Below, one piece after another: positions 3,829 through 7,708 of a stretch of 64,000 bases of DNA. Within the stretch, counting starts at the first letter, position 1. The number at the start of each line of letters is the position of its first letter. The notes beneath the pieces are model-generated. The model was not told the origin of the DNA and made no database searches. It saw only the letters and a list, made by a program, of their open reading frames with translations. The DNA is from an uncultured Candidatus Rokubacteria bacterium. Its GTDB lineage: Bacteria; Methylomirabilota; Methylomirabilia; Rokubacteriales; DASRDR01. The stretch spans positions 30,726 through 94,725 of the forward strand of contig CAWDVE010000025.1 of NCBI GenBank assembly GCA_963805625.1, written 5' to 3'. A program made the translations under genes and the position numbers.

Positions 3829-3974
3829 GTCCAGCAGCCGAGCCGGTCTGCGCGCCCGGGCTTCTTCATGTCCGGCTATCGCGCTCGTCGGATCGGCCCG
3901 CGAAAATTCTTGGGATGTCCACCATCGGCGCCGTAGTCTGACGGTGAGTAACTCAATCTGCGGAGGTGTTCTCG

Positions 3975-4265
3975 ATGGGACGTCGGCTAACGGTGGTGGC
4001 GGTCACGATCTGCCTCGGAGCGAGCGGCGCGTGGGCTCAGAGCCCGGCTCCGAAGAACAGCAGCGACTCGGAGTACACCGACACGGTGTTCGCCACCGAC
4101 CAGCACATGGGGTTCTCGATCCGGACCACCATCGTCCAGTGGCTTGGCGGCATCGACGTCGCCCGGGAGAAAGACGCCAAGGCCGCCGAGAAGGAAGGCT
4201 GGTGGGGCGAGCCCGTGCCGCAGGTCCCCCCGGAGCTGGCGCAGGCGCCGAAGTCCGACCGCTAG
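3975..4265 (+). CDS. Small secreted hypothetical protein
   Basis: GGAGG RBS; signal peptide ending AWA-Q; GC3-rich codons. Confidence 0.65.
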   Translation: MGRRLTVVAVTICLGASGAWAQSPAPKNSSDSEYTDTVFATDQHMGFSIRTTIVQWLGGIDVAREKDAKAAEKEGWWGEPVPQVPPELAQAPKSDR

Positions 4266-4371
4266 TTCCACGTCCCGCCCGCCCCTGGCGCGGCCTCACC
4301 CGCTGACGCCTGCTGTCAGCTGCGCACGGCCCGGCCCACTTCCGGGGTCCGGCGCCGTGCGCTAGAATGCC

Positions 4372-4556
4372 GTCCGCTCCGCCATATCCCATCATGTTCA
4401 GGAGGCGGAGGCCGCCCTGATCCCCGTCGCGCACACGACTGGCGGGGAGTTTCACGCCGCTCCGCGAGTCCCCCCGCGCGAGCGGACCTACTGGGACGCC
4501 TGGGGACGGAAGCGCTAGGTCTTCGGTGCGGGCGCGCCGGAACTCGGCGCGCCCGC
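4372..4556 (+). ncRNA. Candidate structured non-coding RNA, family unknown
   Basis: TAGAAT -10 at 4363-4368; several hand-paired stems; ends in a 12-bp hairpin; no convincing ORF. Confidence 0.35.
4528..4556. terminator. 12-bp GC hairpin between convergent units
   Basis: GCGGGCGCGCCG-GAACT-CGGCGCGCCCGC; no U-tract. Confidence 0.55.
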
Positions 4557-4566
4557 CGGCGTCCCG

Positions 4567-5097
4567 CTAGTCCTGGCCCTTCAGGAGAAGCTTGACGACC
4601 TGAGGCGCCATCGCGCGCGCCCGCTGGTCGAGCTCGGCCTCCGTCAGGTTCGCGATCGGGTGGGGCATGAGCAGAAACCGGTACGCGGGCACGCCCCATT
4701 GCTCGGCCATGGCCCGGCCCGTGAGCTCGAACACATCGGTGACGATCGAGACCGAGGGCACGCCTGCCTTCTCCAGCACGATTCCGTCGAGCACACTGCC
4801 CGACGAGCAGGACCCTCAGTCGCCGATGCCGGCGACCATCACGTCGCAGGTCGCCCGGAGCTCCTGGACGATCTCGTCATGAGCGGGGACGCTCGCGTTG
4901 TGCTTTCGCCACATGCGCGCGTCGGCCGCCCCGTACTCGGCCACCAGGATGTCGCCGATCTTCTGGAGCAGGCGGTCGGAGTTGAACTTCGTGTTCTCGA
5001 CCAGGCCGACACGCTTTCCCGCGAGCGAGCCCGGCCGGGCGACGAACTTGAGCGGCTGCGTCGAGACCTCGACGGTCGGATCCAGGACCTCGATCAT
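4567..5097 (-). CDS. UGSC-family selenoprotein (176 aa, Sec94 at in-frame TGA 4816-4818)
   Basis: Two in-frame ORF pieces join across TGA as ...VAGIGD-U-GSCSSGSVLDG..., giving a UxxC motif. AGGAGG RBS; downstream SECIS-like hairpin. Confidence 0.88.
4785..4805 (-). promoter_or_regulatory. Bacterial SECIS-like hairpin
   Basis: mRNA CGUCGGGCA-GUG-UGCUCGACG: 9-bp stem with one G-U pair and a G-first loop, beginning 10 nt after the UGA. Confidence 0.7.
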
Positions 5098-6134
5098 CGC
5101 TTGACCTCCTTGGTCACGGCCTGGGAGGAGCGCTTGCCGCCCCAGCCCGGGATGTAGCAGGAGAAGGCGCCCGCCCGGCCACCGGCCGCCACGACGAAGA
5201 TGTCGTCGGGAGACTCGACGAGTGGCCGCATTCGCGTCTCGTCGTCCGGCTGGGCGGTTCCGGCCATCTGGTGCGTGCGCTTCAGGTGAGCGTGCGAGTT
5301 CTTCGTGTGCGTGAAGAGGAACTCGCGGATCATCGCCTTGGTCCAGCCGTCCCCGGCGATCGTGCGCATGTGCTCGCCGGCGAGCACGACCACGAACTGC
5401 GGTTGGCCCATCAGGTTCCCGGAGCTCCGCATGTCGTCCGCGAGGGTGGTCAGCACGCCCTCCGCGGTGTTCGAGAGCTGGTTGTAGAACTGCCGGGGCG
5501 CCGCCGCGGCCACGACGGTCACGGCACTCTGGTCCGGACGGAGGCCGCGCTCCACGTGGAGGGGCGGCCAGGGACTCTCGGCCTCGTTCTCGGCGATCAC
5601 GTAGGAGAGCTTGCCCGGGTGCCCGAGCGTGCCCCGGTCGAGGGTGCCGGGCCGGGAGCCGCAGACGTTCCGCATCACGAGACGGACGGCGCGCCCGATC
5701 GTCAGGTTGGCCCGCCACCCGGGCCCGAAGAGGTTGTCGCCGGCGTTGACGTCCAGCTCGCGCGCCACCGGCCCGTTGACGACGATGAGGACCGCGGCCC
5801 CGGCCGTCGAGGTTCCCGGCCCATGGTAGCTCCAGCGCGGGTCTCCGATGCCCTCGATGGCCGCGACGACGACCGGCATGTACTCGGGCCGGCACCCAGC
5901 CATGACGGCGTTGATGGCGACCTTCTCGGCGGTGACGGAGACCGCCCGGTGGGCGACGTAGGTGATCTCGTGGGCGGGGTCGAGGTGGGCGGCCGCGAGC
6001 ATCCGCTCCACTCGCTCCGGGGTGGGGGGGACGACGGGAAGGCCGTCCGTCCATCCCCGCGCAAAGCAGAGCTCGATCGCGTCGGCGTCGTCCGCGGCTC
6101 TGTGGCGTTTCGAGGTCAGCGTGGCCGCGCCCAT
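5094..6134 (-). CDS. Uncharacterised UGSC-associated protein
   Basis: GWTDGLPVVPPTPERV..EKVAINAVMAGC.PEYMPVV..ANLTIGRA..ENE.ESPW; stop overlaps the UGSC start. Confidence 0.85.
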   Translation of the reverse strand: MGAATLTSKRHRAADDADAIELCFARGWTDGLPVVPPTPERVERMLAAAHLDPAHEITYVAHRAVSVTAEKVAINAVMAGCRPEYMPVVVAAIEGIGDPRWSYHGPGTSTAGAAVLIVVNGPVARELDVNAGDNLFGPGWRANLTIGRAVRLVMRNVCGSRPGTLDRGTLGHPGKLSYVIAENEAESPWPPLHVERGLRPDQSAVTVVAAAAPRQFYNQLSNTAEGVLTTLADDMRSSGNLMGQPQFVVVLAGEHMRTIAGDGWTKAMIREFLFTHTKNSHAHLKRTHQMAGTAQPDDETRMRPLVESPDDIFVVAAGGRAGAFSCYIPGWGGKRSSQAVTKEVKR

Positions 6135-6151
6135 CGCGATGGCGCCGGGGG

Positions 6152-6355
6152 TCAGCGGGCCTTCTCGGCCGCCTGGAACCCTACCTTGTTGTGCGTGCCG
6201 TCGCAGAATGGCTTGTTGGCCGAGTGCCCGCACCGGCAGAGGGCGATGGTGTCGCTCGTGAGAGTGAACTCCTTGCCTTCCGCGTCGATCAGGTGAACCG
6301 GACCCTTCACGAGGTACGGGCCGTTCATGCGGGTCGTGATGCTCGGCTTCTCCAC
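6152..6355 (-). CDS. CDGSH-type [2Fe-2S] domain protein
   Basis: NGPYLVKG..ALCRCGHSANKPFCDGTH; AAGGAGG RBS before GTG. Confidence 0.9.
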   Translation of the reverse strand: MEKPSITTRMNGPYLVKGPVHLIDAEGKEFTLTSDTIALCRCGHSANKPFCDGTHNKVGFQAAEKAR

Positions 6356-6420
6356 GTCACGCCTCCTTGGCACGGCCCGGAGGGGGCCTGGGGTCGGTTT
6401 GGCCACGAGTCTCATCGGAC

Positions 6421-6450
6421 AGGATGGAGAGTTTCCACGCCGCCTGTCAA
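6421..6450 (-). promoter_or_regulatory. Putative sigma70 promoter of the CDGSH-UGSC operon
   Basis: TTGACA-18 nt-CATCCT on the minus strand. Confidence 0.45.
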
Positions 6451-6505
6451 TTGGATGGTGGGAGCTCGGGTTGAGGTTCCGCGCGACAGCGGCGACCGCC
6501 GCCGT

Positions 6506-7708
6506 TCAGCGAGGCAGGGCACCGAGCCCCCCGACGGCCGCGCCCCCGGCCACGAGCCACGCGGAATTGAGCCGTGTCGCCAGCAGGATGGCGGCGGCCG
6601 CCAGGGCAAGGGCGGTCGTGAGCCAGTCCACGAGGGCGGCGCGCCCCAGCTCCCAGGTGACCGTTGCCATCAGCGCCACCGAGGCGGCATTCGCGCCGTC
6701 GAGGAATGCGCCGGCCCAGGGTGATCGTCTGAGCCGCGGGATGAACGGGCTCGACAGCGCCACGAACACGAAGGACGGCAGGAAGATTCCCACGGTTGCC
6801 ACGATCGCGCCCGGCACCCGGGCGACGAGGTAACCGATGAAGGTCGCGGTGGTGAGAACGGGCCCGGGGGTGAACTGGCCGACCGCGACGGCGTCCAGCA
6901 ACTGTGCGTCGGTGAGCCAGTGGGTCCGCTCGACCAGGTCCGGCCGGAGGAACGCCAGGAGGACGTAGCCGCTCCCGAAGAGGATCGAGCCGACCTTGAG
7001 GAAGATGAGCGCGAGCTGCGGGAGGATGGCGTTCCCGCTCGCCGGTGTGCCGGCGAGCGGGGCGAGCCCGGCCGTGCTCGAGAGACCGAGGCCGAAGAGC
7101 CCTCCTCCCGGGGCCAGCGTCCGGGTGCCTCCCGTCCTCACCACGCTGCGGAGGAGAGGCAAGCCGAGCGCCGCGGCGAACAGGAGCACGACCTCGTTGG
7201 CGCCCCGAAGGGCGAGGACGAGGACCGCCAGCGCGACGGCGGCGACGATCGGGGTGGCGATGGCCTTCCGGGCGAGGCTCCACACGGCCTGGACCACGAC
7301 GGCGATGATCACCGGTTTGACGCCGTAGAGGATCCACCCGGCCTCGGGAAGACGTCCGTAGCGGGCGTACGCGATCGCCAGGGCGAGCGTGATCAGCATC
7401 GCCGGCAGGATGAAGCACGCACCGCCCGCGACGAGACCCGGCCAGCCCGCGCGCACGAACCCGATGTGAATCGCCATCTCCGTCGAATTCGGACCGGGGA
7501 TGAGATTGGTCGCTCCGAGGAGATCGAGGAACTGCGCGCGAGTGAGCCACTGCCTCCGCCGGACGACCTCATCCTCCATCAGCGCGATGTGGGCGGCCGG
7601 GCCGCCGAAGCCGATCACGCCGAGCTTGAGGAAGAGGCGCGCCACCTCTCCGGCGCTGCCCCGCGGCGCGGGAGTTCCAGCGAGCGGTTCGGTGACCTCG
7701 TCGCGCAT
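6506..7708 (-). CDS. chrA: Chromate efflux transporter (long CHR family)
   Basis: FLKLGVIGFGGPAAHIA, LIPGPNSTE, FGSGYVL, GQFTPGP. Confidence 0.92.
   Translation of the reverse strand: MRDEVTEPLAGTPAPRGSAGEVARLFLKLGVIGFGGPAAHIALMEDEVVRRRQWLTRAQFLDLLGATNLIPGPNSTEMAIHIGFVRAGWPGLVAGGACFILPAMLITLALAIAYARYGRLPEAGWILYGVKPVIIAVVVQAVWSLARKAIATPIVAAVALAVLVLALRGANEVVLLFAAALGLPLLRSVVRTGGTRTLAPGGGLFGLGLSSTAGLAPLAGTPASGNAILPQLALIFLKVGSILFGSGYVLLAFLRPDLVERTHWLTDAQLLDAVAVGQFTPGPVLTTATFIGYLVARVPGAIVATVGIFLPSFVFVALSSPFIPRLRRSPWAGAFLDGANAASVALMATVTWELGRAALVDWLTTALALAAAAILLATRLNSAWLVAGGAAVGGLGALPR

Follow-up and report, generated by a model that had tools for sequence, protein, structure and literature searches.

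A predicted two-subunit selenoenzyme of Rokubacteria that pairs a UGSC selenoprotein with a large partner on the selenoprotein-B reductase theme

The model that we put forward combines two proteins encoded side by side in a Candidatus Rokubacteria genome: a 346-residue large protein and a small selenoprotein of the UGSC family, which would together form a widespread, uncharacterised two-subunit selenoenzyme built on the theme of the selenoprotein-B reductases. A CDGSH mini-protein encoded just upstream of them appears in this model as a family-specific neighbour. The locus lies in the window, by which we mean the whole stretch of 64,000 nucleotides that was analysed, and a preliminary description had presented its three genes as a candidate undescribed redox system.

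To call the system undescribed goes too far. A 'UGSC-containing protein' and its fusion to a domain named 'Unknown_1' have been in print since 2008 (Zhang and Gladyshev, PMC2398784). UGSC proteins make up 8.2% of the marine selenoprotein genes of one survey (PMC9402790), and a 2026 review (PMC13188914) still lists them among the uncharacterised families. In the open literature searched, which includes PMC1976440 and PMC7539508, we found neither a function for UGSC nor a link to GrdB, nor any account that treats the pair as an enzyme. The family and its fusion are thus already published, and it is the pair as an enzyme, with its link to GrdB/PrdB, that we did not find there.

The locus and its UGSC selenoprotein

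The three genes are co-directional, all on the minus strand (Table 1), and the 17-nt gap between the CDGSH and large genes, the ATGA overlap between the large and UGSC genes and the Sec codon, all noted in the preliminary description, were verified in the sequence. The TTGACA promoter claimed there is a mixed case: the hexamer is present and, by eye, is followed by CATnCT in 14 of the 18 upstream regions of the window's family (family f1), but a scan with the consensus promoter returned 0 sites, because the -10 box CATCCT matches only three of six positions. The recurrence of the two boxes among the relatives makes it likely that a single promoter drives the CDGSH, large and UGSC genes, and by eye the large gene has no Shine-Dalgarno sequence of its own. 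Contigs from RNA libraries cover all three genes, most of them carrying the sequence of relatives and indicating neither the strand nor a single transcript, and the cover is nil in the flanking gaps 4287-4547 and 6462-6548 in all four runs. A chromate transporter gene lies upstream of the locus, with the promoter in between; several genomes of the family carry other genes at that place.

Table 1. Features of the CDGSH/large-subunit/UGSC locus (coordinates of the window)
Feature	Position	Strand	Details
-35-like hexamer TTGACA	6450-6445	minus	read from the sequence
-10-like hexamer CATCCT	6426-6421	minus	18-nt spacer, 3/6 consensus
CDGSH gene	6355-6152	minus	GTG start, AGGAGG 6 nt upstream, 67 aa
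CDGSH/large intergenic gap	6151-6135	minus	17 nt
Large-subunit gene ('Unknown_1')	6134-5094	minus	346 aa; motifs quoted in the preliminary description present
ATGA overlap, large gene/UGSC gene	5097-5094	minus	read from the sequence
UGSC selenoprotein gene	5097-4567	minus	176 aa, U94-G-S-C97
Sec codon TGA	4818-4816	minus	in-frame, gives D-U-G-S-C
SECIS-like hairpin	4784-4806	minus	+10 to +32 after UGA, 10-bp stem, loop GUG at +20

When it is read through the TGA, the small protein matches NF041046 with 145.4 bits, where 125 are required and neither half alone reaches that value, and PF24696 with 205.7 bits, where 25 are required; these profile scores place the small subunit fully within the UGSC family (NF041046/PF24696). 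The position of the Sec codon is occupied by Cys in 74 of the 76 top-listed homologues (P0124-P0199), the two others having a Trp or lacking the motif, and the TGA is kept in all 27 adjacent UGSC orthologues among the 30 closest loci. The folding energy of the SECIS-like hairpin is modest (z of -1.98 for a 37-nt piece and of -0.8 to -0.9 for longer pieces), but in a set of 126 distinct Sec-containing UGSC sequences at least 111 fold a loop with G at +20. In 38 orthologues, which are kin, the nine codons from +4 to +12 hardly change (each is the same in 37-38 of the 38, AGT and GGA among them), while codons +1 and +2 vary. The genome has the machinery for selenocysteine (tRNA-Sec, selA, selD and selB), its selB being split over two frames by a break at a homopolymer run that is likely an assembly indel. 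The apical-G hairpin, the Cys homologues and the Sec genes together indicate that the TGA would be read as selenocysteine.

The structure model of the selenoprotein (pLDDT 92.6) is a five-stranded alpha/beta domain with alternating strands and helices, in which U94 stands at the start of the helix that follows strand 3. Its fold matches are generic flavodoxin- or Rossmann-like proteins, the best of them (Z 10.6) a designed protein, and we predict a flavodoxin-like fold. The 2008 description (PMC2398784) had guessed a thioredoxin-like fold; we reject it, since U94 follows strand 3 and not strand 1 and the top matches are flavodoxin/Rossmann-like. A UGSC profile, which fused rows had stretched to 542 positions, gave no match in the PDB, and the ESM Atlas gave no usable named match for a Cys-type UGSC.

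The resemblance of the C-terminal half to GrdB/PrdB, already suspected in the preliminary description, was borne out by the alignment of profiles. With 89 UGSC rows against a GrdB/PrdB family of only 11 rows, hhalign aligned the UGSC protein to the C-terminal domains of GrdB (glycine/sarcosine/betaine reductase) and PrdB (D-proline reductase), the PF07355 proteins, over 143 columns with a probability of 92.9% and an E-value of 3.8e-7 (89.1% in another run). When the UxxC was masked, the E-value was 6.8e-5 and the score 35.8, whereas none of 30 shuffles scored above 21.2. Both families carry UxxC(xxC) in the same place, followed by a helix, an LE-x-GIP strand and an HP motif, and both work with a larger partner; the GrdB-type UxxCxxC occurs in 26 of 60 paired UGSC proteins. 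The kinship is nevertheless distant. Against 64,846 ORFs of the genome, the best non-UGSC match of the UGSC profile is a GrdB-type ORF, with an E-value of 0.063; the reverse search with the GrdB/PrdB profile does not place UGSC among its top 14 matches; PF07355 does not match the UGSC protein at E 0.1; and a tree sets UGSC and GrdB/PrdB on separate branches (100/100). UGSC is thus likely a distant homologue of the GrdB/PrdB catalytic domain and not a member of PF07355. A sequence search for a solved GrdB or PrdB structure found none, and therefore none could turn up in the fold searches with UGSC.

The large subunit and its partnership with UGSC

The 346-residue protein matches no Pfam or NCBIfam family. 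Its central segment matches by eye the AVMAGCRPEYMP...NG region of the alignment that Fig. S1A of PMC2398784 gives for Unknown_1, and at the level of sequence we identify it as the 'Unknown_1' domain of Zhang and Gladyshev (2008). Both halves of our pair are therefore shared with the 2008 family; the difference is that the partner, there described in a fusion, is here usually a separate adjacent gene, and that it belongs to a family with matches in 5,465 clusters at 50% identity and as many as 14 in a single genome of the order. Its closest named homologues are found in Rokubacteria/Methylomirabilota. The protein is present in 123 of the 151 genomes of a phylum sample that includes the unpublished G029, G058 and G101, among them every one of the 105 further members of the order. 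Six residues are conserved in more than 90% of the family (D30, C81, T110, N143, R148 and E182, T110 in 91%).

Its model is of high quality (pLDDT 95.9) and yet leaves the protein without a clear solved fold. The best structural match (Z 6.3) is confined to the sub-domain 214-330; searches of PDB sequences with the protein alone or as a profile returned only short matches to the HisF barrel, taken as chance; the ESM Atlas offered only unnamed or 'thioredoxin family' clusters, with recognition below the reliable mark; and no internal repeat was found between the two halves. For neither subunit was a close solved sequence relative found.

The longest structural match is the alpha subunit of class I fumarate hydratase (PF05681; PDB 7xky, 6mso), which covers 183 residues between positions 84 and 346 of the model with a Z of 5.3 and an rmsd of 5.2, and which is also the top Foldseek match (E 3.3e-4, TM 0.31-0.35). 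One could accordingly imagine a non-redox lyase or isomerase, in which the large subunit would be a remote relative of fumarase alpha, UGSC would give Fe-S ligands or a transient Michael nucleophile, and CDGSH, NifU-like and ferredoxin-thioredoxin-reductase (FTR) proteins would deliver clusters. Such an enzyme would agree with the NifU-like fusions described below and with the MmgE/PrpD, aconitase and aconitase X genes that adjoin the pair at several loci. We consider it quite unlikely. The resemblance, at a Z of about 5 and 8-10% identity, is within the range of chance arrangements; against a fumarase-alpha profile of 32 sequences, drawn from 47 loci with the exclusion of three that belong to unpublished genomes, the large subunit scores an E-value of 0.37, no better than shuffles, and PF05681 does not match, so that the kinship is unsupported at the profile level. 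The three-Cys cluster motif is not evident. The family has only two well-conserved Cys, of which one (column 179) is a Val in the window's protein. Finally, the trxB linkage reported in the next section implies a net reduction.

The pairing itself is documented on several levels. UGSC lies directly downstream of the large gene in 27 of the 30 closest loci. Of 79 wider loci from many phyla, 62 have a UGSC somewhere in the flanking sequence fetched (up to 6 kb), these being the best 79 of 609 confirmed in a scan of 4 of the 64 parts of the collection. In the remaining 17 no UGSC was nearby; where the large gene stands alone, a UGSC was found elsewhere in the genome in all five genomes tested. 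A set of 60 tight pairs includes both gene orders and nine in-frame fusions, and 38 of the 150 best representatives carry a UGSC sequence in the same chain as the large subunit; some of the five cases of C-terminal UGSC fusion may be read-through. The nucleophile is missing from some fusions, as in Sporomusa, where the motif reads D-M-G-T-S. The genome studied here has four large/UGSC pairs, all with Sec and one of them fused, and a fifth UGSC-like match that is a remnant interrupted by an insertion element; five genomes checked hold 8 to 13 UGSC matches each. The distances of paired large and UGSC proteins are correlated (Mantel rho 0.57), which we do not count as evidence, because kin share such a correlation.

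The complex was folded on a natural Cys-type stand-in, the pair L148, in place of the window's own Sec pair; its large subunit is 42% identical to the 346-residue protein, and its UGSC is 28% identical to P0124, which of the Cys relatives listed is the one closest to the UGSC of the window. It scored 0.78, whereas the best of three controls scored 0.00. Roughly, and with their own alignments, 116 of 157 solved pairs reach that mark, as do 2 of 215 mismatched ones; the runs agreed on at least 91% of contacts, with a partner pLDDT of at least 86. The interface brings residues 97-99 of UGSC, 97 being the Sec position, against residues 101-103 of the partner, 103 corresponding to T110 here, and the N-terminal strand of UGSC packs on the N-terminal region of the partner; the equivalent of C81 is not among the interface residues named. 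The large subunit and UGSC are thus predicted to form a heterodimer with the Sec-equivalent residue at its interface. The two-subunit Sec enzyme anticipated in the preliminary description gains support from the fusions, the co-occurrence and this predicted interface.

The CDGSH gene and the wider neighbourhood

The upstream protein is an ordinary prokaryotic CDGSH protein (PF09360, E 8e-22, 77.7 against a cut-off of 29.5 bits) with an intact C-x-C-x9-C-D-G-T-H motif providing three Cys and one His as ligands, and only its position in family f1 sets it apart. It is found in 56 of the 61 genomes of an order sample that includes the unpublished G029 and G058, mostly in one copy. The preliminary description had made it the third component, and one may conceive of a three-part system in which CDGSH is the required donor of electrons or clusters to the pair. 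It precedes the large gene, with a 17-nt gap under one promoter, in 17 of the 18 f1 genomes, which span several genera, and contigs from the RNA libraries of two studies bridge the junction between the CDGSH and large genes, although this does not imply a single transcript; co-transcription with the pair in family f1 is likely. The f1 genomes are, however, kin, and in the sister family (f2) CDGSH is located elsewhere, the linkage falling to 0 of 12 (the 17/18 and 0/12 counts covering the 30 best loci only). Counted from the side of the large gene, it is linked in 10 of 10 cases in f1 and in 0 of 20 in the sister family. It is likewise absent from all 79 wider loci and, by annotation, from the 12 plasmid loci, and in this genome it stands beside one paralogue only, at none of the three other pairs. 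The linkage is therefore not conserved beyond one family: we hold a required CDGSH donor to be very improbable, and CDGSH is at most an optional accessory, outside the conserved module.

The neighbours of the pair are heterogeneous across loci, and no catabolic neighbour is present at the window's own locus. Of 24 plasmid records with a match, 12 loci were inspected: trxB belongs to the cluster in three, all Cys-type; CoA-linked catabolism aside, a Cys-type operon in the order trxB-trxA-large-UGSC is carried by Arthrobacter sp. ERGS1:01 (AL755_RS00575-00560), and comparable sets occur in Roseovarius THAF8 and Variovorax SRS16; CoA-linked catabolic genes are annotated in seven; and most have organic-acid transporters and regulators of the LysR/IclR type. 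One plasmid pair sits between selA and selB. In this genome a family-III CoA transferase, present in some 15 copies in 7.3 Mb, abuts two of the four pairs. Among the 79 loci of metagenome-assembled genomes (MAGs) trxB was found at none and trxA at two, and dedicated thioredoxin genes are therefore the exception. No members of the GrdA, GrdC or PrdC families were found among the neighbours scanned. The idea that the pair detoxifies arsenic, mercury or chromate, to which the chromate transporter gene of this locus and an ArsC-family gene after one pair might lend some colour, seems to us extremely improbable: the transporter gene lies beyond the promoter and is exchanged in several f1 genomes, and genes for metal handling seldom turn up in the neighbourhoods scanned.

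Among the 150 best representatives, the large subunit is also fused to Trx/AhpC-like domains in six cases (six of 11 N-terminal extensions), joined by a G-C-G/A-S/A linker, to NifU-like CxxC domains in four (by motif, the Pfam support being weak) and to a ferredoxin-thioredoxin-reductase chain in one; with three N-terminal extensions outside the count, every identified fusion partner carries cysteines of redox type. The linker echoes the U-G-S motif.

These dithiol fusions and trxB links would fit equally well a reductase for oxygen or sulfur transfer, formed by the same heterodimer, in which Sec would attack the O or S of a sulfoxide, N-oxide, disulfide or thiosulfonate and not a carbon, by a chemistry akin to that of Msr or peroxiredoxin and recycled by thioredoxin. 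Genes resembling phosphosulfolactate synthase at three unrelated loci point the same way, as do the genes for DsrE, TusA and cysteine desulfurase that accompany the pair in Paracoccus. Such a reductase is nonetheless rather unlikely in our view, for the closest relatives that profiles reveal for UGSC break C-N bonds (PMC13188914), and the CoA-linked neighbours indicate the catabolism of carbon skeletons.

Proposed mechanism and significance

The mechanism that we prefer, with a confidence that falls a little short of even, makes the large subunit and UGSC a two-subunit reductive lyase for substituted organic acids, with Sec as the nucleophile and recycling of the thioredoxin type; we favour it because of the fusions to redox cysteines, the trxB clusters and the CoA-linked catabolic context. 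The displacement chemistry of the selenolate in GrdB and PrdB is established and forms the basis of the analogy. The large subunit would hold the substituted organic acid or its CoA ester, and the selenolate of Sec94 would displace a heteroatom group (C-S, C-N or C-O) next to the carboxyl or thioester. C97 would then resolve the adduct in the manner of GrdB/PrdB, and Trx/TrxB or the fused dithiol domains would re-reduce the selenium-sulfur bond. Judging from the neighbours, the substrates would be organic acids of the catabolic islands, and the many paralogues would differ in substrate.

It is also conceivable, though we think it rather doubtful, that the Stickland selenoprotein-B reductases have a second branch, aerobic and represented by UGSC and Unknown_1, which would be made of a GrdB-like Sec nucleophile and a pyruvoyl-free substrate-binding subunit of new fold. 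Unlike GrdB/PrdB, the pair occurs in aerobes and haloarchaea, and its large partner shows no similarity to GrdE/PrdA: against the GrdE/PrdA-type protein of the same genome, taken as a single sequence, hhalign gives an E-value of 0.55, and PF09338, the family of the GrdE/PrdA pyruvoyl proprotein, does not match it. The Schiff-base step of the Stickland enzymes is therefore without an evident counterpart. The Trx-fused forms, for their part, may have swapped the UGSC subunit for the C-G-S linker.

In conclusion, the CDGSH link contributes little to the significance of this locus. What does contribute is that a partner, a predicted interface, a mechanism of the GrdB/PrdB type and cultured Cys-type operons with trxB bring the function of UGSC within direct experimental reach, with no need for the selenium machinery. 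With the large subunit, the known enzymes would gain a big family that has no name yet and may have a new fold, and its expansion in Rokubacteria bears on the diet of these abundant soil bacteria.

Flanks of the operon and selenoproteins elsewhere in the genome

The features surrounding the operon, and those related to selenocysteine elsewhere in the genome of the window (G000), are listed in the table. The chromate transporter gene keeps its synteny across much of the family to which the window belongs, other genes being found instead in several genomes of this family, and the 99-aa protein on the opposite flank, which has no Pfam match, was found in one relative. The start codon of the gene encoding the large subunit is GTG in other relatives, and the locus of the closest relative (L162, genome G091) carries AGG where the large gene has ATG; translation may here be initiated through coupling to the CDGSH stop codon, or this AGG may be a sequence error.

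The frame break in selB is likely an assembly indel, because Sec codons and SECIS-like hairpins are retained genome-wide in G000. The glycine-reductase-like cluster of this genome combines a GrdB-type Sec protein bearing UxxCxxC and, after it, a gene of the GrdE/PrdA family.

Features flanking the operon and related to selenocysteine in genome G000
Feature	Location	Strand	Remark
99-aa signal-peptide-like protein	window 3966-4265	+	convergent with the operon
Chromate transporter gene	window 6506-7708	-	upstream of the promoter
selB, two frames	G000:C21:223590-225524		outside the window; break at a C/G homopolymer run
Glycine-reductase-like cluster (L034, L194)	G000:C10:1700750-1706255
PrdB-like selenoprotein (L035)	G000:C17:530844-531656		apart from the glycine-reductase-like cluster
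Fifth UGSC gene, remnant	G000:C17:503097-503537		C-terminal end only; adjoins an insertion-element ORF

Tandem arrays and domain fusions

Two or three paralogues of the module formed by the large subunit and the UGSC protein lie in tandem at nine loci (L013, L015, L020, L023, L025, L026, L029, L030 and L114), frequently one fused and one split. The existence of proteins of about 616-741 aa that contain the large domain twice per chain (P0246, P0253, P0258, P0261 and P0286) suggests that this domain dimerises. The fusions of a Trx/AhpC fold to the large subunit (P0314, P0324, P0326, P0345, P0361 and P0376) possess a G-C-G/A-S/A linker, which may stand in for the UGSC nucleophile.

Neighbours of the module at other loci

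Fused forms in two unrelated genera (L250 and L255) are adjoined by aconitase X and DUF126; the Sporomusa fusion is devoid of the Sec/Cys nucleophile. At three loci (L121, L245 and L249), which belong to one alphaproteobacterium, one actinobacterium and one haloarchaeon, phosphosulfolactate-synthase-like genes occur close to the module, and these neighbours provide a lead to sulfo-acid substrates. On a plasmid of Paracoccus ferrooxidans (L248), a pair of the Sec type is flanked by selA and selB; its annotation lists three hypothetical proteins, and it offers a Sec-type test case in a cultured organism.
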